Shown here: positions 34,701-46,425 of the stretch, one piece after another
Position numbering within the stretch: position 1 is the first letter of the stretch
Layout of the letters: each line of letters opens with the position of its first letter
Assembly (NCBI RefSeq): GCF_041248615.1
Contig: NZ_CP158426.1
DNA from: Escherichia coli
Lineage (GTDB): Bacteria; Pseudomonadota; Gammaproteobacteria; Enterobacterales; Enterobacteriaceae
Reading direction: 5' to 3' (one strand)
Length of the DNA: 64,000 nucleotides
Notes under the pieces: generated by a model
Databases searched by the model: none
What the model was told of the DNA's origin: nothing
Seen by the model: the letters and a program-made list of their open reading frames with translations, nothing else
Position numbers and translations under genes: made by a program

Positions 34701-35227
34701 GCAAGGTGATTTTTTGTCCTCTTGCGCTAATTTTTTGTCAACTCACTGGGTTAGTTGAATTTACAACCATGCTCAGTATCTCGATAAGCGCAGGGAGATG
34801 ATGCAGTGGTGGGCGGACTGGCTTGATGAAAGTGTGCTGTAATCCTCATATCCAACCTAAGAGATATGCACAATTTTGTGAATAAGATATTGAGAATTAG
34901 CAAAAGTTTTATTTTGCGTATCATCAATTCAGAATACAAAGTCACATGCTAATGTTCTGCATTGGTATCTTTTGCTTATCCATGTCTACATTATCGCCAA
35001 AATAATAGGTTTTGCCTATCAATTATTTGAATTACTTCCATGAAATTATAACGCACTTGTAATTTTTGATTATTTTTACCTCTCAAGTGTTTTGTTTCTT
35101 CTATCTCTTTGTATTTTTAGCGAAAGTATGCCATATTGCATTCTAATATAACGTGGCGTTGTTTCTGTTTAATGATTTAAATAGTTCAACATAATATTTG
35201 CTAACAAATTATATCCAAGCAAATCAT

Positions 35228-36373
35228 ATGATATTATCATTACAATATATTAGAGGAATAGCATCATTACTTGTTGTTTTATTCCACTTCAGATTCTTGC
35301 TAAATGAGCACTACTCTCAGAAAGATTTGGGTGACCTATTATTTGGGAATGGGCTGTCTGGAGTTGATATATTCTTCATATTAAGTGGATTTATCATCGT
35401 ATACTCAACAAGAAAGAAGGAAGTTAATGATACTTTCTCATTCTCAATTAGAAGAATATTTAGAATATACCCATTACTAATCACATGCTGTTGCATGTAT
35501 TACATAATAAACACTCAATTTCTAACCTATGCTACAGTTGAAAACTTTAGAACCTTACTTATTTCCATCATTCCATTAAATATAAACTGGAATGAAGGCG
35601 CTCCATTCTTTGCCTATAATCTTTTGTACCCGGCCTGGACGATAACATATGAAATTGGTTTCTATGTTTTTTTCGGGGTATCAATGTCTATTTCGCATAA
35701 ATACAGAACAATTATCTGTTCTGTTTTTATAATCATGGTGGTCTCATTTACACAATACTATGTAAATGGAAATATATCATTTTCAGGTGATGTTAGTGCA
35801 GGGTTATTTACAGATAACTGGTTATTAGGATATACAAATGTTATTACATCTCCAATGATGTATGAATTCGTTATTGGGATGTTTCTTTCTGAAATATTTA
35901 CAAACATCAACGAAAGCAAAAGTATTAAAAGGATACTTTCAAAGTATTCGCTTCAAATACTATGGATTTCATGTGGTATATCCATAATATTATTCATTAT
36001 CCAGCGACCTTATGGGCATGGATTGAATGGATTTGGGACTATGGCGATGATACTTATTGCATCATCATTAGTATATGAATACTGCAATATAACACCCAAA
36101 ATAAAAATATTTAATTTCCTTGGTGAAATATCATATTCTTTATATCTAATTCACGCCGTGATACTTGCTTTGTTCTTCTATTATAAGGCAGACCTTGCTG
36201 AAATTGGCATAACTGGTGGATTTTCTGTGTTTTTTTCCTTGGTTATTATCTCAATAACTGCATCATATCCAATATATATTCTCATTGAAAAGCCAATGAT
36301 AAATATAGGTAAACGTTTAATTGACAAGAGAAATAAGAGCATTAACAAAAAAGAAACCGAAATAACAGCGTGA
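35228..36373 (+). CDS. acyltransferase family 3 membrane protein (O-antigen/OafA-type acetyltransferase-like)
   Basis: about 381 aa, 10+ TM; N-terminal YIRGIASLLVVLFH and FFILSGF motifs typical of acyltransferase_3; AT-rich; ORF 35198 (TTG) trimmed to ATG 35228. Confidence 0.75.
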   Translation: MILSLQYIRGIASLLVVLFHFRFLLNEHYSQKDLGDLLFGNGLSGVDIFFILSGFIIVYSTRKKEVNDTFSFSIRRIFRIYPLLITCCCMYYIINTQFLTYATVENFRTLLISIIPLNINWNEGAPFFAYNLLYPAWTITYEIGFYVFFGVSMSISHKYRTIICSVFIIMVVSFTQYYVNGNISFSGDVSAGLFTDNWLLGYTNVITSPMMYEFVIGMFLSEIFTNINESKSIKRILSKYSLQILWISCGISIILFIIQRPYGHGLNGFGTMAMILIASSLVYEYCNITPKIKIFNFLGEISYSLYLIHAVILALFFYYKADLAEIGITGGFSVFFSLVIISITASYPIYILIEKPMINIGKRLIDKRNKSINKKETEITA

Positions 36374-36410
36374 TAATGACAAAGTTAGTGCCGGGATACC
36401 CCGGCACTAT

Positions 36411-37748
36411 TTAATCTATTTCGTAAGTGACAGTGATTATCACTTCTGCATTATTACCCAAAACATTTTGATATATATTCATATTACCTGATAATGTAGT
36501 TGCTCCAGTAAGAGTTATATAACTACTATTTGCATCAACCCTTGGAAGTAAAGCGGTAACTGCTGTTGTTAAATTATTATAGTAGCCTGTACTTCCAACA
36601 TATGCAGCTTTATTGCTTGATACATATGGTAACCCTCCAATTCTGAAACCATCTCCTGACCCAATTAAAGTTATACCAAGGTGACATGTTGCCGTTATGA
36701 TATTGCCACTCCTGACATAATTTCCTTTCTGCTGATAATATGTGGCATTACCACCTACAGTCGGAATCCAAACTCCAGTTTCTATATCACCACATGACCA
36801 GTCTTCTGCTGTTGTTAGTTTTCCAGTAACAATAAATTTACTTCCACCACCAGAATTATAAGGAACAAAAATTGGATTTATTCTTGCATAAGTGTTACCG
36901 GTCTGCTCATTAAGATCATTTCTATCAATAAGAACTTGACCATTTTCGAAGTTTGAAATCTGGCAGTCTGTTACACTCCAGTCTCTTAACTTCACATCAG
37001 CATCCATGACACCAATAAGCTTACCAGCATTACCAATTTTTTCTTTATGCATATTTACATACACATTTCTTACCGTAACAGACTGAGGGAACAGATAATT
37101 AGCAGGATTAGTTTTATCACTTAAAACAGATATTACCCAAGGTCTGTATTGAGTACTTACTTCACAATAAAATCCATCAATAAGCGTTCCAGATGCCGCT
37201 GGCCCAAGTAGTATTCCACCTGTAGAGTGATGCGCACTACCTCCAATTACTCTCCCCTTAACGCAGTTAATATAGGCAAAACATCCTAAATCTTGATTGT
37301 CATAGGCTGACATAGCACAGTCTCTAACTGTTACTCGAGAATTTCCTCCGTCATAAGCTGAGCCATCAGTTTTCTTACCAACTATTGATATAAAGTTACC
37401 AATAGCAACTCGACTATAAAAAGTTTTTTTATAACACCCCTCAATTAAAATATCCCAGTTTTCAAACTGAGCATATATATCATAAATGCTGGCATTCCCA
37501 TAATCTATGAAATCACAATATCTTATTTTCGGCGTATAAACGGCACTTTTTATCTTTATACCACCTAATGCTCTCTCCCCACCTGTGAATCTAATGCCAG
37601 TAACGGTGTAATCGCCTTGATAGAAATTATCTGCGGTAGGATTATTTTCGTCAGAATCATCACCCAATATAATAGCAAATTCACTCCCTGAATAATTAAT
37701 TGTCGCCCCCTTATTTGAATATATAGTTACAGGTCTTATAAACTCCAA
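36411..37748 (-). CDS. beta-helix (pectate-lyase-like) protein, probable tailspike/tail-fibre distal fragment; no ATG start
   Basis: 445 aa, Asn/Gly/Ser/Thr-rich with repeated short beta-strand pattern; first codon in frame after the stop is TTG, with no ATG or N-terminal adaptor domain; AT-rich. Confidence 0.5.
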   Translation of the reverse strand: MEFIRPVTIYSNKGATINYSGSEFAIILGDDSDENNPTADNFYQGDYTVTGIRFTGGERALGGIKIKSAVYTPKIRYCDFIDYGNASIYDIYAQFENWDILIEGCYKKTFYSRVAIGNFISIVGKKTDGSAYDGGNSRVTVRDCAMSAYDNQDLGCFAYINCVKGRVIGGSAHHSTGGILLGPAASGTLIDGFYCEVSTQYRPWVISVLSDKTNPANYLFPQSVTVRNVYVNMHKEKIGNAGKLIGVMDADVKLRDWSVTDCQISNFENGQVLIDRNDLNEQTGNTYARINPIFVPYNSGGGSKFIVTGKLTTAEDWSCGDIETGVWIPTVGGNATYYQQKGNYVRSGNIITATCHLGITLIGSGDGFRIGGLPYVSSNKAAYVGSTGYYNNLTTAVTALLPRVDANSSYITLTGATTLSGNMNIYQNVLGNNAEVIITVTYEID

Positions 37749-38140
37749 AGAATTACTTATCAGATACTCTCCATAAGGAAAAAAATCTCAACTGGTGGTG
37801 AGTACTTTGGTCTGGAGTTTACGTAATTCATAATATTGATTACACCAACATCATAGATAATCGCCACCTTCTGGCGAGGAGCTCCTGATGCAATTAATCG
37901 CCAGGCCTACGCCCATTATTCATGGGTAAATTTTGGACGGAGCCCCCAATTCCATCCTCAATTCTCCCTCGCACTGAGGAGTAGTAAGTGCAATTATTTA
38001 AAAAATCGCAAACAGAATATTATCATTTATTCTTGCATTCTGTTAATTAAAACCACACATAAAAACGTTGATACTTGATAAGTAAGTAGAGTATTATTAA
38101 TGGTTTTAATAACGAACCTTTTAATCATGAGAAGCCTCAA

Positions 38141-39166
38141 ATGACTAGTACCAATAACATAACAAGAAAAAAAATGGATGGAGTAACAATCTTAAGATTT
38201 ATAGCTGCTTTTTATGTGTTTATTTTTCACATTAACATGAGAGTCCCCGTTAATTTTGGAGAGCTTATTAATAAAACCATTAGCAATGGCGTCATTGGCA
38301 TGAGTATTTTCTTCATGCTTTCTGGTTTTGTTTTGACTTATAATTACTATGGTTCCTTGTCAAACAATTACTTCAGGAAGCGAATAGCAAGAATATTTCC
38401 AGCCTATTTATTTTGTGGGCTTTTAACCCTCCCATTTTTGTTATCCAGCGATGCAAGCTTTTTAAAAATGATTGCAAGCATATTCTTGTTTGTTACTGGA
38501 ATGCAATCATGGATTTATCAGACCTTCGATTTTTGGAATTTTAGCGGTACCTGGTCAATATCAGTGGAATTGTTTTTTTATGCCCTGTTTCCATTTTTGA
38601 TAAAAAACATCAACAAAAACAATGTAATTTATGTTTTACTTTTTTCATATTTATCTTCAGCATTATTAATCCCATTATCTGATATAATTCAGGGACCTGT
38701 AGTTTGGTCCGTATATTACGCAACTCCAATATACAGGTTACCAGAATTTGTGGTGGGCGTCTGTATCGCAATACTTTTTTTAAATGGCTATCGTGTTAAC
38801 CATTATACATGGCTATTAAGCATTTTATTATTTCTGTATGCTACCACCCAGCAAAACAATAACTCCATGGGGGTGAACTATCTCACAATTCCTGCGATAT
38901 CAATTATGTTATTGCACCTGGCAAAAATCAACATCAAAAACAACATTGCAAACAGAGCGATCATTTACTTTGGAGATATAAGTTATTCGTTTTATTTGAT
39001 GCAATTACCTATATTATATTACCTGGATCATAATAAAAACTCATTTATTCTTAACTATGGTCTTTTTAGCTGGCTTGTACTTTTTGTTATTAATACTGCA
39101 ATGGCATCATTATCTTATCACTTTCTGGAGAAGAACGATAAAATCAGAAAAATAATTACATCCTGA
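38141..39166 (+). CDS. acyltransferase family 3 membrane protein (O-antigen acetyltransferase Oac-like)
   Basis: 341 aa, multi-TM; ILRFIAAFYVFIFH and FFMLSGFVLTYN motifs; ATG start; very AT-rich. Confidence 0.78.
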   Translation: MTSTNNITRKKMDGVTILRFIAAFYVFIFHINMRVPVNFGELINKTISNGVIGMSIFFMLSGFVLTYNYYGSLSNNYFRKRIARIFPAYLFCGLLTLPFLLSSDASFLKMIASIFLFVTGMQSWIYQTFDFWNFSGTWSISVELFFYALFPFLIKNINKNNVIYVLLFSYLSSALLIPLSDIIQGPVVWSVYYATPIYRLPEFVVGVCIAILFLNGYRVNHYTWLLSILLFLYATTQQNNNSMGVNYLTIPAISIMLLHLAKINIKNNIANRAIIYFGDISYSFYLMQLPILYYLDHNKNSFILNYGLFSWLVLFVINTAMASLSYHFLEKNDKIRKIITS

Positions 39167-41374: not shown

Positions 41375-42570
41375 GACTCCACCGTTATAACGATATTTTC
41401 CGGTGTACAGGACGCAGATTCGTTGTATCTGATATCAATGTTTGATGACGACAAAGCCCCCGGGGATTTCCCAATCGTCAGTTCCTGAATATCGTAATAG
41501 CGTGCATTCCCGCCACTCACCACGCCAAGATTCGCCGGTGAGTAAATGCGACTTAAAAGGACCGAATCACCAATCATCAGACTATTGATATAGTCGGAAA
41601 TAGCCTGCTGGATCTGCTGCCCTATCTGTGAGGTATAACCCGTAAAAACTTTTAATTTAATCCGGGCATAAACAGGTACATCACTGGAACGCGAGAATTT
41701 GATTACATGGGGATTGCCGTATTTATCCGGAACCGTAACGGATGTTGTACCGTGAGTGGCTGTCCCCTGGCCTTTATTCCCTCTAATAGCCTGAGCAATA
41801 TCCGTCACATCACCGCCATCCACAATTACAGCAACAGAGTGTGGCGGTAACCCGTTACCGTCCTCCGAACCAGTATCGTTTTCATAGAGTTTGTGGCGGG
41901 TTACACCGGTAACATTAGAAACAGCACCATCCAGTGCTTCAAATGGGGTTATTGATGGCAACGCAACACTTTGCGACTGGCGGATACGTAACTCCGCATC
42001 AGTTTCTGCTGGAGTGCCTACAGTAGCTGCAGCAGGATTGGTTACCGAAACCCAGCCACGGGTTGGCGTATTAATTTCAGTGATAGTTCCAGCCAGCGCC
42101 GCCACTGCACCACTGACGGAACATTTTGCGGTCACCATCACTGTACCATCCACGCCGACCACCACTGAAGCAGGCAAACGCCATATCACATTATTACCAT
42201 CTTTCACGCTGCCATTAATGATGGTTGTTCCGGCAGTTCCTGTAAGAAGCAAATCAACCGTAGAATTCGTCGCGCCTTTACGTGAAATACCATTTATTTT
42301 CACGTTACTGGTCAGCGCAGCCCCATAGCCGGTTGCCGGTGAAAAACAGTTGTAGACAGTTATCGCCATATTATTGGCATCATGAATCGCCAGCGCCATC
42401 AGAGCCACCATCTGGCCGTCTTTGCTGTCCGGTTCGAGGTAGGCATCACTGCCATAAATCTGCTGAAAATAGCTAATCAGGGTGCTGAGTATCGTCTGAT
42501 AATCAGGCGCACTGATCCCCTCCGCGGTTACCTTTGCAGATAAACCGAGAGAATCAAGGTTCAGAGCCAT
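41371..42570 (-). CDS. baseplate J-like protein (Mu gp47 / P2 gpJ family)
   Basis: 399 aa; position and size; overlapping start/stop with neighbours. Confidence 0.7.
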   Translation of the reverse strand: MALNLDSLGLSAKVTAEGISAPDYQTILSTLISYFQQIYGSDAYLEPDSKDGQMVALMALAIHDANNMAITVYNCFSPATGYGAALTSNVKINGISRKGATNSTVDLLLTGTAGTTIINGSVKDGNNVIWRLPASVVVGVDGTVMVTAKCSVSGAVAALAGTITEINTPTRGWVSVTNPAAATVGTPAETDAELRIRQSQSVALPSITPFEALDGAVSNVTGVTRHKLYENDTGSEDGNGLPPHSVAVIVDGGDVTDIAQAIRGNKGQGTATHGTTSVTVPDKYGNPHVIKFSRSSDVPVYARIKLKVFTGYTSQIGQQIQQAISDYINSLMIGDSVLLSRIYSPANLGVVSGGNARYYDIQELTIGKSPGALSSSNIDIRYNESASCTPENIVITVES

Positions 42571-42923
42571 TACGCCTCCGATGTAACAGTCGTTATTCCA
42601 TAAAGAGTGTCGATTTCAGCGGAAAACATGACACGTCGGGTCGTGGTATCCACCGTCGTATTGAAAGAGAGGATTGATTTAACGCCCTGCGTTTCGAGGA
42701 TGCGTTTTCTGATCGCCAGGTTGTAAGTTTCCGGTTTTTGCCTGCCCAGCACGGACTGGATCCACGGAGTCCCCTCGGTGGTGTCGAGAAACCATTGCCC
42801 ATACCACAATTCGAATCGCGTTTTTACCGCCTGCGCCACGGCCTCCGGTGAGTTAATCAGCCAGGTGTCATCACCGCTGCCAAAGGTGTAATCGCCATCG
42901 GCGTCTTCACGTCTGTATCGCAT
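42570..42923 (-). CDS. baseplate protein (GpW / Mu gp46-like)
   Basis: 117 aa; conserved position upstream of baseplate J. Confidence 0.65.
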   Translation of the reverse strand: MRYRREDADGDYTFGSGDDTWLINSPEAVAQAVKTRFELWYGQWFLDTTEGTPWIQSVLGRQKPETYNLAIRKRILETQGVKSILSFNTTVDTTTRRVMFSAEIDTLYGITTVTSEA

Positions 42924-43675
42924 CAGTTTACTCCGTCGGTATTGCTTCCACCGCGCTGAACACCACCATGAGTGTGCGTATCATCGATTGGCTTGCCGTT
43001 AGCCTTCACGCTACCCAAAAACTCAACAGCACCAGTGATTTTTGAAGCCACACCAGAAACAACAGACCCCACCATGCCACCCATCCAGGTTAACAGGCCA
43101 TGAATGGTTACTTTCTCAGAAAAATCAGCCAGAGGAGCAACCACATCAAGACCACCCGGAGCGACAATTTTAATTTTCCTGGTGTCAGGATTAAGCTCAA
43201 AATAGGTGCTGCCGTCGTCACTACGCAACTGTGTGGCACTGGTATTAATACCGCTAATCTTCCTCGCCTGCGACTGGGGACCGACAATACAAAACGCATC
43301 CGATAAATCATGCATTCTGTCATCGACCGGCTCCTGTATCCCGCCACTCTGCCACCAGAAATCAATACAACGATCGGCAAAAACGACAAGACACTCATCC
43401 CCGGCTTTTACCGGAAAAGTCAACGTACAGCCTCCGCCGCGCGGGAATACCACTGGTACATCCACCAGCAATGGGTAATTTTGGGTAATGCGGTTGCCGT
43501 CATTATCCTTTTCAACCGAACGGATAGCAGGCTGCACAACTGCCGTCACCGCATCAGGATCGAATGACTGAATAATGCCAGGCAAGGCGACACGGATCTG
43601 GTTCTTTGTTGTTTCCCGTTCAGATTTGAATGTTTCGGCAAGGTCGCCGCTGCGGGTCTGGTCAGATACTGCCAT
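42923..43675 (-). CDS. baseplate assembly/spike protein (Mu gp45 / P2 gpV-like)
   Basis: 250 aa; position; Gly-rich C-terminus. Confidence 0.6.
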   Translation of the reverse strand: MAVSDQTRSGDLAETFKSERETTKNQIRVALPGIIQSFDPDAVTAVVQPAIRSVEKDNDGNRITQNYPLLVDVPVVFPRGGGCTLTFPVKAGDECLVVFADRCIDFWWQSGGIQEPVDDRMHDLSDAFCIVGPQSQARKISGINTSATQLRSDDGSTYFELNPDTRKIKIVAPGGLDVVAPLADFSEKVTIHGLLTWMGGMVGSVVSGVASKITGAVEFLGSVKANGKPIDDTHTHGGVQRGGSNTDGVN

Positions 43676-43694
43676 TTAGTAGGCTCCAGAAAGC

Positions 43695-43720
43695 AAAAAA
43701 CCCGCCATCCGGCGGGTTTT
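43695..43720. terminator. rho-independent terminator downstream of lipoprotein moron
   Basis: aaaaaacccgccatccggcgggtttt: GC hairpin flanked by A and T runs, between lipoprotein stop (43741) and next gene start (43675). Confidence 0.7.
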
Positions 43721-43740
43721 ATGTGACTAATTTGATCTTT

Positions 43741-44466
43741 TCAGTTTATAAGCCCCATCTTACCGGCGCTTCGATAGTTAATTACATCGCCTGAAGAGCC
43801 GCAAGGCACAGCTACAGTCGACATTTTGACAAATCCTTTACCGCCCTGCTTTTGGCATAAAGTGGCATGCATTTTTGCTAAACGCGCAGCATGACCAAAA
43901 TCAATTTTGGTTCCGTAAGTTGAATCTCGTAGAGCTGCTTTTTTTGCAATTCCAGTAATATTTTTGTCTTTAATTACAGATGCAAACAAACTCAAATCAT
44001 TTCCAATTTGATTGAAGCAAGTACGATTAATATCAACATCGGCATACGCTGAAATGCGTTTGCAATCTGAGATCTGAGAAAGCACAGATGTGTTAACCAG
44101 TTGCAAATTTAATTTGTAGTCACCGACATAGGTATAAACTTTGTTAGGGTCCGTGGTTCCCGGATAACGAGTTACGAATGGAATGCTGTTGTACGCATCT
44201 CGCAAAGATTCTGCACCCTTACTTTTAAGCTCGTTCCCAACACCAGCAACGATAACCTCTGGATGTGAAACTTCAAATTGAGACTTTTCTTCGCGCTGTA
44301 TTTGAAGCCTGCTTTTCTGGCTCTCCTCAACTTGCTTATCGTACGCTTGTTTTTCTTCATTTTTTTGGGATAGCCATTTTTCCTGCGCTTTAGCACCATT
44401 AGGATCCCAACTACATGAAGTTAAAAAAAGAGAAAATACGATTGTGGTTATCGCAAGCCTGCTCAC
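43741..44466 (-). CDS. lipoprotein of unknown function (moron inside tail/baseplate module)
   Basis: 241 aa; GTG start with GAGGTG SD; signal peptide plus lipobox LTSC; AT-rich relative to flanking tail genes; own terminator. Confidence 0.7.
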   Translation of the reverse strand: MSRLAITTIVFSLFLTSCSWDPNGAKAQEKWLSQKNEEKQAYDKQVEESQKSRLQIQREEKSQFEVSHPEVIVAGVGNELKSKGAESLRDAYNSIPFVTRYPGTTDPNKVYTYVGDYKLNLQLVNTSVLSQISDCKRISAYADVDINRTCFNQIGNDLSLFASVIKDKNITGIAKKAALRDSTYGTKIDFGHAARLAKMHATLCQKQGGKGFVKMSTVAVPCGSSGDVINYRSAGKMGLIN

Positions 44467-44468
44467 TA

Positions 44469-45533
44469 TTATGCACCTCGATTCATCGCTGACTGGCTAG
44501 GAATATCACTAGCACCTCGAGCAAAGCACATCATATCCATGTACCACGCCTGGCCCCTTGTGTCGCCAGTGTACATAATCCCGCGCACAATATAAACGCC
44601 ATCCGTTGCGATGCTGGCAGGTTGTGCTGTGGTGCCGCTGAGTGTGATATTTCCGTCCGTGTTCTGGTCGGTGATCTGCCCACCAGCCATCGCAATATCA
44701 TTGTTCGACAGCGCGGTGCGGTACACGGAAGCCTGATCCAGCTGAATAAGCCCGTTAACCCGGATGTTCGGATTAATAAGCGCGCGGACGTTTACGCCGT
44801 TACCGATAGTCTGCTGCGGCATGCCAATAAGCCCGGTAGCGCTGTTGAGCACAATCGCTTCATGAACATATTCGTTATTCGCCACCATCTGGCGCTGACC
44901 GTCCACGAATTGCCATGTTGCGCCACATTGCCCGGCTACGTTATCCATTAGATGCCGCGTCATGCCAAAGAGCACCCGCCCCCGGGGGAATACAGTAGCA
45001 GGCATTTCAGGCGTCAGGCCTTCGGTCGCACCTTTGGCTTCGAAGTCTTTCATCAGCGCACGGTTCACATCAGCGACCGTGTAACCGGCAGCCAGCGTCT
45101 GTGAGGTTATACTGGTGGCAAAAGCCAGATCAGTATCTGCTGCCTGAATCAGGACGTAGGAATCAACCGGACTGTCTTTTCCTGTGACCGAGTAGCGAAT
45201 TTCACCGCTGAAAATCAGTCCGTAGTTGCGGCCATCTCTCTGGCCCACGTCCGCCGCGTCAACTTCCCGCACGGTCCCTACGTCGCTTGCTGACACCTCC
45301 GGCGCGATACCGTCGTAACCGGCAATCAGACGCACTTTCGAAAATTCCTGCCCGGTGATTCGGTTCACAGTATCTGCCGAGAGGTTATAAATTTTGATAG
45401 TCCCTACCCGGGACGCGCTGCTGATGTTGAACCAGTCGATCGTAAAGGTGACTTTGAAATCACTTAGCTCAATTCCCTGACCGTTCCCGTCCACAAGCTG
45501 CAGCTCGAAATGTCTCATCCAGTTCTGTGACAT
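44469..45533 (-). CDS. phage tail/baseplate protein (late tail protein, unassigned)
   Basis: 354 aa ORF in tail gene row between tape measure and baseplate genes. Confidence 0.6.
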   Translation of the reverse strand: MSQNWMRHFELQLVDGNGQGIELSDFKVTFTIDWFNISSASRVGTIKIYNLSADTVNRITGQEFSKVRLIAGYDGIAPEVSASDVGTVREVDAADVGQRDGRNYGLIFSGEIRYSVTGKDSPVDSYVLIQAADTDLAFATSITSQTLAAGYTVADVNRALMKDFEAKGATEGLTPEMPATVFPRGRVLFGMTRHLMDNVAGQCGATWQFVDGQRQMVANNEYVHEAIVLNSATGLIGMPQQTIGNGVNVRALINPNIRVNGLIQLDQASVYRTALSNNDIAMAGGQITDQNTDGNITLSGTTAQPASIATDGVYIVRGIMYTGDTRGQAWYMDMMCFARGASDIPSQSAMNRGA

Positions 45534-45535
45534 GC

Positions 45536-45838
45536 TTACTCCGTTGATACCAGTAAATGACTGAGGCCGCCCAGATCAGTTTTCGTGGGATAATCCTGTG
45601 TGTTGTCATCGCAGACCACCACCAGCTTAAAACCAAGTCCCATACAGGCGTACTGCGCCAGCAGGTCAGCACCAGTGACGAGAGGAATACCGGAGATTAC
45701 CGGCTCCCCTCTGTCGTTCTGCAGGTCCATAATCCAGTACAGATCGCGCCATATGATGCTAATCCGCCAGGTAACACCACCCAGGACGATGCTGAACTGC
45801 TGGTTGTCCGCTGTCAGCGGAATTTCCTGAATTGTCAT
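45536..45838 (-). CDS. phage tail protein (small, unassigned)
   Basis: 100 aa; start/stop coupling with neighbours. Confidence 0.55.
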   Translation of the reverse strand: MTIQEIPLTADNQQFSIVLGGVTWRISIIWRDLYWIMDLQNDRGEPVISGIPLVTGADLLAQYACMGLGFKLVVVCDDNTQDYPTKTDLGGLSHLLVSTE

Positions 45839-46425
45839 TAGCCGCCCCCCAGTAATGACGCCACGTTACCCGTGATGCTTTTCAGCAGTGAAGTATCTGG
45901 AGGCTTTGTGGTTTTGTTGCCGCTATTCTGTACCGCCGACGTGCTGGCCCCTTCCTTCATGTTGGTTTTATCCGCGACGGTAATCTGCTGTGTCCGGGAG
46001 ATAAGGACCTCCCTCAGGGTGAGGACGGCGGACAGGACGTTTTCGGTTGTCTTGTCCGTCGTCACTTCCAGCGCCCGGATCAACATGTTGCTGTACAGTC
46101 GTTTACCGGTTACCACATCGAAGGGGATACGGCTTTCCTGCAGATCCAGTAGCTCCTGATACGTCTGCTGAGGACTCAGGCCGAGCAGGCTGGTAGCCGT
46201 CAGATTACTGGCAAAATCCAGCAATGCGCCGCCACCGGCGAAACCAACCTCCATCACCACTTCTGACGGTTTTTTATAGGCATGATCAGCGACAGCGGCC
46301 CCAACCTCTACCGGATGCTCTGTTATTTCAAGCATATCTGTATGCTTCTCTGAAATAACAACACTGGGAACAATCATTCCTATTTTTCTGCTCTGCTGAT
46401 GAAAAAGTGTAGAGAGAATATCCAC
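45838..46425 (-). CDS. phage tail protein (unassigned, downstream of tape measure)
   Basis: 195 aa; stop/start overlap with tape measure gene. Confidence 0.55.
   Translation of the reverse strand: MDILSTLFHQQSRKIGMIVPSVVISEKHTDMLEITEHPVEVGAAVADHAYKKPSEVVMEVGFAGGGALLDFASNLTATSLLGLSPQQTYQELLDLQESRIPFDVVTGKRLYSNMLIRALEVTTDKTTENVLSAVLTLREVLISRTQQITVADKTNMKEGASTSAVQNSGNKTTKPPDTSLLKSITGNVASLLGGG

Follow-up and report, generated by a model that had tools for sequence, protein, structure and literature searches.

In a lambdoid prophage of Escherichia coli, the genes for the baseplate hub and the membrane-puncturing spike of a contractile tail are separated by a gene for an exported lipoprotein, and the interval between them is a cargo slot that recurs in related tail modules and is filled in two tiers. 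The gene was studied in a 64,000-nucleotide (nt) stretch of contig NZ_CP158426.1 (assembly GCF_041248615.1), which we call the window. We put the probability that its product is an exported accessory lipoprotein resident in the hub–spike slot at about 0.9. For its function we favour, far more tentatively (0.35–0.4), that it stops incoming phages in the periplasm, an idea that comes by analogy from the genomic context.

The gene at the hub–spike slot

A sequence-only reading of the window had described the gene as a moron inserted in the baseplate gene row and had called its position within the baseplate module unusual. The position turned out to be the usual one for this family. In a scan of IMG/VR, the order hub, lipoprotein, spike on one strand was found in 38 of 38 loci, and the lipoprotein lay at the same site in five of the eight informative contigs obtained by protein look-up (L005, L008, L009, L019 and L020; L numbers are our locus handles). 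Homologues at 38–47% identity occupy the identical place in distant tail modules, as do two long variants, and one distant member (L013) is shifted by one gene, sitting ahead of the hub gene and after the plug gene. The family, which spreads over Escherichia, Salmonella, Citrobacter, Rouxiella and Budviciaceae, is almost exclusively located at the hub–spike slot.

Comparison with related tail clusters showed that close relatives keep both flanks and do without the gene. In 689R2, 606R2, 611R5, 683R1, YP3 and SEN34 the hub and spike flanks are 82–97% identical to those of the window (96–97% in the closest relatives) and other genes fill the interval. The hub/spike module was present in 351 of 5,426 complete E. 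coli genomes, and only 11 of these 351 modules carried the lipoprotein gene; the other 340 lacked it, with hub and spike 94–97% identical. The description as a moron is therefore right in part. Absence from close relatives and a distinct base composition support it, but the terminator behind the gene appears to be part of the slot, the gene is a recurrent resident rather than a one-off insertion, and a crude consensus scan of the minus strand from 42500 to 46000 found no sigma-70-like promoter. With no promoter found and a start codon coupled to the hub stop, the gene does not fully fit the classical definition of a moron.

A two-tiered cargo slot

Most relatives carry, directly after the hub gene, a gene for another exported protein of 111–117 amino acids. 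It belongs to phrog_3443, a group with no assigned function, and combines a signal peptide with two invariant cysteines. No phrog_3443 homologue was present in any of the 38 IMG/VR lipoprotein loci, and the two families never co-occur, which suggests that they fill the same role at the first position of the slot. Homology between the two proteins was considered and rejected, as hhalign gave a probability of 7.7%. The second position of the phrog_3443 loci holds a HEPN protein with its partner, a YafO-like toxin with its partner, DUF4282 or DUF2335 proteins, and others. Similarly, further cargo of 0.6–2 kb lies between lipoprotein and spike in 10 of the 38 IMG/VR lipoprotein loci, among it HEPN-like pairs and both genes of a PADLOC candidate system, PDC-M18 A+B (E 4e-130 and 2e-72); on L009, one of the look-up contigs, a PycTM-like membrane protein is part of the additional cargo. 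In the window, nothing occupies the second tier. The slot is two-tiered: its first position holds an exported protein drawn from at least two families, and its second may hold variable cargo. Because the lipoprotein alternates with phrog_3443 and the cargo behind them is variable and defence-like, we regard the interval as a structured cargo slot and not as a random insertion point. It looks like a defence-gene hotspot, found in approximately 6% of complete E. coli genomes.

The interval is also occupied in the lytic Pseudomonas phage E217, where gp42 (L018:7595-8128) lies between the hub gp41 and the tail tip gp43. This protein belongs to phrog_4774 and has no signal peptide. Cryo-electron microscopy of E217 resolved a baseplate cap made up of gp36, gp37/gp38, gp41 and gp43, with gp42 unmentioned (PMC10329688). 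Together, these data indicate a non-virion gene in the hub–spike interval even in lytic E217. As an equivalent of the lipoprotein, gp42 was discarded, since it lacks a signal peptide and falls into a different PHROG.

A small, conserved open reading frame (ORF) of 54–59 amino acids with the motif FGIK.SGPY.EKLKIAFRL was seen just upstream of the spike gene in some loci with the lipoprotein (L019:7095-7274, L035:4606-4785 and L040:4948-5112) and is absent from the window.

Borders of the slot

At the upstream border, hub homology to 689R2, YP3 and SEN34 stops approximately 45 nt before the stop codon, and the last 15 or so codons (about 44469-44515) differ. The hub C-terminus reads MMCFARGA in the window and in other lipoprotein loci, and MMCEARGAADL in phrog_3443 loci; the shared ending of the lipoprotein loci indicates exchange by recombination between related modules. 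The downstream border is a hairpin whose stem (43720-43697) has 10 pairs, six of them G-C, a GGAU loop and a following T-run. A 61-nt stretch containing it folds with an energy of -18.6 kcal/mol (z = -2.7). The left arm of this hairpin is exactly where homology to 689R2 and SEN34 restarts, although both hold other cargo, and distant loci have their own hairpin and T-run at the equivalent place before the spike gene. Hence, the strong terminator that had been noticed behind the ORF is present but is apparently not the gene's own: relatives whose cargo differs have kept it, which marks it as a probable part of the slot.

The lipoprotein gene and its product

The features of the window and the coordinates of the alternative cargo are collected in Table 1. 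The ORF is as it had been described from the sequence, 241 codons with a GTG start (44466-44464) located 2 nt past the hub stop TAA (44471-44469) and a GAGGTG Shine–Dalgarno sequence ahead of it. It is clearly AT-richer than its neighbours, with a G+C fraction (GC) of 0.408 and a third-position value (GC3) of 0.339, compared with 0.542 and 0.603 in the hub; the other tail genes range from 0.48 to 0.54 in GC, and the dip is seen again at every homologous lipoprotein locus. The tight packing of the tail genes is broken here, as 65 nt separate the lipoprotein stop from the spike ATG (43675) while neighbouring tail genes abut or overlap. The NCBI annotation pipeline (PGAP) calls the same 241-residue ORF in identical E. 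coli prophages. Homologues down to approximately 20% identity, an invariant lipobox cysteine, conserved cysteine pairs and a ratio of nonsynonymous to synonymous substitution rates (dN/dS) of 0.09–0.15 all argue that this is a real gene and not a chance ORF.

Table 1. Coordinates of the lipoprotein gene, the slot borders and the alternative cargo (plain numbers, window; L numbers, other loci)
Feature	Coordinates	Strand	Basis or remark
Lipoprotein gene	43741..44466	-	241 amino acids, GTG start, TGA stop
Signal peptide and lipobox L-T-S-C (residues 1-18), predicted	44413..44466	-	PROSITE-type rule
Long charged helix (residues 22-67), modelled	44266..44403	-	AlphaFold2, pLDDT 87-94
Globular alpha/beta head (residues 68-241), conserved Cys 135, 150, 204, 222	43744..44265	-	model and alignment
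Shine–Dalgarno GAGGTG	44474..44479	-	read from sequence; 7 nt before GTG, within the 3' end of the hub gene
Baseplate hub gene, 354 amino acids, upstream slot border	44469..45533	-	phrog_196 'baseplate hub', E 5e-88
Terminator hairpin and T-run, 3' slot border	43689..43720	-	terminator scan and folding
Membrane-puncturing spike gene, 250 amino acids, downstream slot border	42923..43675	-	PGAP name; homologues with PF18352 and Apex domains
phrog_3443 genes	L001:2846-3181, L002:3374-3715, L003:2434-2775, L015:2327-2668, L016:1429-1770, L017:1967-2320, L060:2104-2442		
Second-position cargo	L046:4794-6346; L041:4703-5891; L048:4881-6124; L015:1139-2267; L017:808-1798; L009:6782-7396		

The N-terminus, MSRLAITTIVFSLFLTSC, satisfies a PROSITE PS51257-type lipoprotein rule (positive n-region, hydrophobic core, lipobox [LVI][ASTVI][GAS]C, cysteine at residues 15–35), in agreement with the signal peptide and LTSC lipobox noticed earlier. 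Cys18 is predicted to be the lipid-modified first residue of the mature protein. Alignment A1 shows no variation at this cysteine, and essentially the whole family, including nearly all full-length members, has a lipobox. Under the Lol-avoidance rule, an aspartate at position +2 of the mature protein keeps lipoproteins from being sorted to the outer membrane. Residue +2 is serine in the window and S, G, A, T or N, never aspartate, over 37 loci, so sorting to the outer membrane is predicted. A motif C-S-W-D-P-x-G, immediately following the lipid cysteine, is conserved.

The mature protein has approximately 224 residues and no C-terminal hydrophobic segment. AlphaFold2 modelled the full-length protein on the family alignment with a mean predicted local distance difference test score (pLDDT) of 85.6 and a disordered signal peptide. 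The segment behind the lipobox had been described as charged and coiled-coil-like. It is indeed charged, with 54% E/K/R/Q over residues 22–67, but it is poor in hydrophobic residues (15%) and the model makes it a single long helix. A stiff spacer of one helix is therefore a likelier description than a classical heptad coiled coil. The cysteine-containing C-terminal domain that had been proposed corresponds to the globular head, which, modelled alone with 31 diverse homologues, reached a pLDDT of 94.6 and a predicted TM score of 0.88. Two of its four conserved cysteines are invariant in all 31 sequences, and the four would fit disulfides formed in an oxidising compartment.

A small orphan family

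Homologues fell into 15 clusters at 90% identity in a search of 5.8 billion sequences, and a search of 1.84 billion proteins gave a family of 36 representatives at E <= 0.001, some of them 330–378 amino acids long with an additional N-terminal domain. The sequence-only reading had not recognised the protein, and neither did the databases. No Pfam family matched the lipoprotein even at E <= 10, and Pfam on the family alignment likewise gave nothing usable; there was no NCBIfam or PADLOC match, and a profile search of PDB sequences found nothing meaningful. The sole PHROG match was a weak one to phrog_3727 (function unknown; E 0.005), confined to the N-terminal 60 residues. A tblastn search against 50,697 phage records gave no match, so that no phage isolate of this collection carries the gene. 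All matches of Foldseek in AFDB50 belonged to the family itself; they bear the label 'Lipoprotein' and stem from Salmonella, Rouxiella, Xenorhabdus, Photorhabdus, Pantoea, Acinetobacter and Serratia, and the structure searches found no solved or annotated relative of the head domain. Profile and structure searches showed no match to the Llp, Cor, Bor, TraT or o-spanin Rz1 families, Rfam found no RNA element above threshold over the region, and the literature search found nothing specific on the hub–spike slot or the lipoprotein. The lipoproteins form a small orphan family with no known fold relative.

The name given by PGAP, 'HMG-box domain-containing protein' (L010:20062-20787, equal to window 43741-44466), was rejected because Pfam HMG_box gave no match at E <= 10; it probably stems from the K/E/Q-rich charged helix. 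The sheath initiator nearby (L010:18891-19244, equal to window 42570-42923) is named 'thioredoxin domain-containing protein' in RefSeq, which also looks spurious.

Selection and exchange

In pairs with enough divergence, dN/dS of the lipoprotein gene was 0.09–0.15, compared with 0.02–0.07 for the hub gene, so that the lipoprotein gene, judged by substitution rates, is under purifying selection. All the same, no other gene of the module is as divergent: its mean pairwise identity is 0.50, versus 0.57–0.75 for the others. Between the window and L030, synonymous divergence (dS) was 0.06 in the lipoprotein gene and 0.5–1.1 in the flanking genes, and L049 and L052 showed the same pattern; the gene thus appears to have been exchanged recently between diverged tail modules. 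Distant loci are 38–47% identical to the window in the lipoprotein, 46–62% in the hub and 52–66% in the spike. This comparable divergence points to a long residence of the gene in the slot.

Spike alleles are also swapped between modules. The spike of L028 (4609-5361) differs from those of L022–L027, and L034 and L032 show further swaps, the spike being 69–72% identical and the hub, Dit, plug and J genes 98–99%. The backbones of these swaps are otherwise 98–100% identical, apart from a tape measure of 73% in L025. From these alignments, the tail-tip genes appear mosaic at single-gene resolution.

Proposed function and its alternatives

A start coupled to the hub stop, with no promoter of its own found, leads us to expect expression together with the late tail operon, in which case the lipoprotein would be translated in lytic growth through this coupling. 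In lambda, Q-modified RNA polymerase reads through terminators. The prophage of the window encodes a Q antiterminator, and Q-modified polymerase would read through the slot hairpin in lytic growth; in the lysogen, the hairpin would stop slot-internal transcription from reaching the spike gene. Read-through in one state and insulation in the other could thus explain why a strong terminator is tolerated and conserved within an essential gene row. The lipid would anchor the protein in the outer membrane's inner leaflet, with the helix, if straight, setting the head approximately 7 nm into the periplasm, where it may hinder phages of the same tail type in driving in their tail tip or delivering their DNA. 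Such a block would protect the lysogen or the infected cell and would possibly spare progeny otherwise wasted on cell debris. We favour a periplasmic role tied to the tail type because of the near-exclusive link to hub and spike, the alternation with another exported protein and the defence-type neighbours. A cell-wall hydrolase in the tape measure would be a possible target, but Pfam sees only PhageMin_Tail there, and the label 'lytic transglycosylase' comes from PGAP only.

Several observations weigh against an entry block. Among 30 non-redundant loci, lipoprotein alleles did not track spike alleles, which argues against a specific lipoprotein–spike pairing. The highest allele correlation, 0.52, was with the adjacent hub gene, as linkage alone predicts. 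L022 and L028 have 100% identical lipoproteins and 72% identical spikes, and L028 and L034 have 96% identical spikes and 48% identical lipoproteins. A whole-gene dN/dS of approximately 0.1 carries no arms-race signature, and the scan found no promoter that would drive the gene in the resting prophage. Tail modules are not the only home of the family: L012 has a chromosomal setting, and L021 belongs to a small integrase/primase island. How long the helix is and how far it extends into the periplasm are predictions only, no likeness in sequence or fold to known exclusion proteins or defence models was found, and the function itself is predicted from context.

How the lipoprotein could act otherwise depends largely on what it would touch. 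By binding an outer-membrane receptor or entry port from the periplasm, as proteins of the Llp/Cor type do, it could block adsorption or triggering and protect progeny from debris. The predicted outer-membrane location, the conserved cysteine pairs and the expected production with the late tail genes would suit such receptor masking, the C-S-W-D-P-x-G motif by the lipid cysteine could be a near-membrane contact site, and T5 Llp works in this way (PMC9586334). We nevertheless consider it unlikely, since the linkage is to hub and spike, four genes from the fibre gene, a protein of the outer membrane could be reached without the long spacer helix, no annotated PHROG is homologous, and acyltransferase genes beside the fibre genes hint at a lipopolysaccharide (LPS) or O-antigen receptor instead of a protein. 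The exclusion gene of T5 is, by comparison, linked to the receptor-binding protein gene. Alternatively, the protein might serve the lysogen and play no part in conflicts between phages, as a host-fitness or virulence factor acting in serum resistance, adhesion or envelope robustness. The prophage lipoprotein Bor of lambda has a host-fitness role, and an AT-rich prophage accessory gene found in human and animal isolates would be in keeping with one; however, a near-exclusive link to a single tail-module position across genera is hard to explain on these grounds, no promoter was found, and neither Pfam nor NCBIfam gave a match, so that this too seems improbable.

The same architecture, an outer-membrane anchor followed by a periplasmic helix, recalls spanins and Lpp, and could belong to an envelope helper of the phage's own lytic cycle, acting in lysis, egress or remodelling of peptidoglycan and outer membrane. 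Translational coupling to late tail genes agrees with this, and so does a first position that is seemingly always held by an exported protein of some family. But a complete lysis cassette, 'lysis protein' included, is encoded elsewhere, the size of the protein far exceeds that of o-spanins, it lacks a C-terminal membrane segment, and close relatives manage without the gene; we give such a role only a slim chance. Spanin genes belong to the lysis cassette, beside or within the i-spanin gene, and u-spanins also bear a membrane segment at the C-terminus; a spanin proper was dismissed because the cassette is complete elsewhere and this segment is missing. Least probable by far is that the protein helps to build the baseplate, as a structural part or in its assembly, and that its N-terminal hydrophobic stretch is not a signal peptide. 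Such a role would account for a gene in the middle of the baseplate row and coupled to the hub gene, and E217 too has a gene, gp42, between hub and tip. Contractile tails, however, assemble in the cytoplasm, where an exported product cannot join them, and a virion part was rejected for this reason. Moreover, the lipobox cysteine is invariant and the lipobox family-wide, the four further conserved cysteines would suit oxidising surroundings, of the 351 E. coli modules 340 do without the gene despite their nearly identical hub and spike, and gp42 is unrelated and has no signal peptide.

Returning to the periplasmic entry block, a broader version, which we consider doubtful, holds that E217/SEN34-type temperate phages of Enterobacterales with contractile tails reserve the position after the hub for a self-exclusion gene with an exported product, that the lipoprotein and phrog_3443 are two solutions to this task, and that the lipoprotein, its novel-fold head kept level with the cell wall by the rigid helix, prevents contractile tail tips, possibly including those of tailocins, from penetrating fully. 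To our knowledge, very few periplasmic exclusion mechanisms against contractile tails are known. If an entry block were confirmed, the lipoproteins would be a new, structurally unrelated family of envelope-level exclusion factors against such tails; with no exclusion role, the gene would be one more uncharacterised prophage accessory gene. In practice, the hub–spike slot is a convenient place to seek defence genes, having recognisable flanks, an exported protein, cargo and a terminator that insulates the spike gene.

Relation to known systems

The lipoprotein and its slot resemble known exclusion lipoproteins and tail-module hotspots in kind and are unrelated to them in sequence and fold. HK97 gp15, a moron in the tail gene cluster, reportedly blocks DNA entry by phages of the same type; it is likewise an accessory gene embedded in the tail gene row, but it encodes a small inner-membrane protein of an unrelated family. 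For the gene of the window, no promoter of its own was found. T4 Spackle (Sp) is an exported protein that inhibits the gp5 lysozyme. Ltp of the Streptococcus thermophilus phage TP-J34 is a surface lipoprotein involved in exclusion (PMC3952083). Both are exported phage proteins acting after adsorption on the incoming tail tip; the lipoprotein described here has no homology to either, and a tail-tip target is for it a hypothesis that the absent co-variation with the spike disfavours. T5 Llp is an outer-membrane lipoprotein that targets FhuA from within the periplasm and thereby excludes phage (PMC9586334; bioRxiv 10.64898/2026.03.26.714494). It shares with the window gene a location among tail genes and conserved cysteines, the Cor proteins of phi80 and N15 representing a related idea, but there is no similarity in sequence or fold, Llp is small compared with a mature protein of approximately 224 residues bearing a helical spacer, and the window gene is linked to hub and spike and not to a receptor-binding gene.

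Prophages are known to carry cargo hotspots, fixed sites with interchangeable accessory or defence genes (10.1101/2021.01.21.427644), and the Z/fun hotspot of P2 lies beside baseplate and tail genes (bioRxiv 10.1101/2024.10.15.618418). The hub–spike slot is similarly a fixed site between tail genes, here with HEPN-like, YafO-like, DUF4282 and PDC-M18 cargo; it differs from Z/fun in phage group and site and in being two-tiered, with the lipoprotein as the conserved tier. The likeness to Lpp and spanins, an outer-membrane lipid anchor and then a long periplasmic helix, is one of architecture only: there is no homology, the helix of the lipoprotein is poor in hydrophobic residues, looks monomeric and bears a globular head, and the gene, unlike those of spanins, lies outside the lysis cassette.

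Other features of the prophage

The prophage adjoins the bio operon and ybhB and combines its Q antiterminator and complete lysis cassette (holin, RrrD lysozyme and 'lysis protein', approximately 16 kb from the lipoprotein gene) with an E217/SEN34-type contractile tail. A very AT-rich block (GC 0.30–0.34; window 35198-39166) lies at the prophage end, adjoining the tail-fibre assembly gene, and contains two acyltransferase-family genes (35198-36373, plus strand; 38141-39166, plus strand) and a 445-codon ORF (36411-37748, minus strand). The genes of this block probably modify O-antigen or LPS, which hints at LPS as the phage receptor. Two tRNA genes, tRNA-Thr (tgt) and tRNA-Asn (gtt), lie on the minus strand at 61842-61997 of the window, between the Q antiterminator and holin genes.

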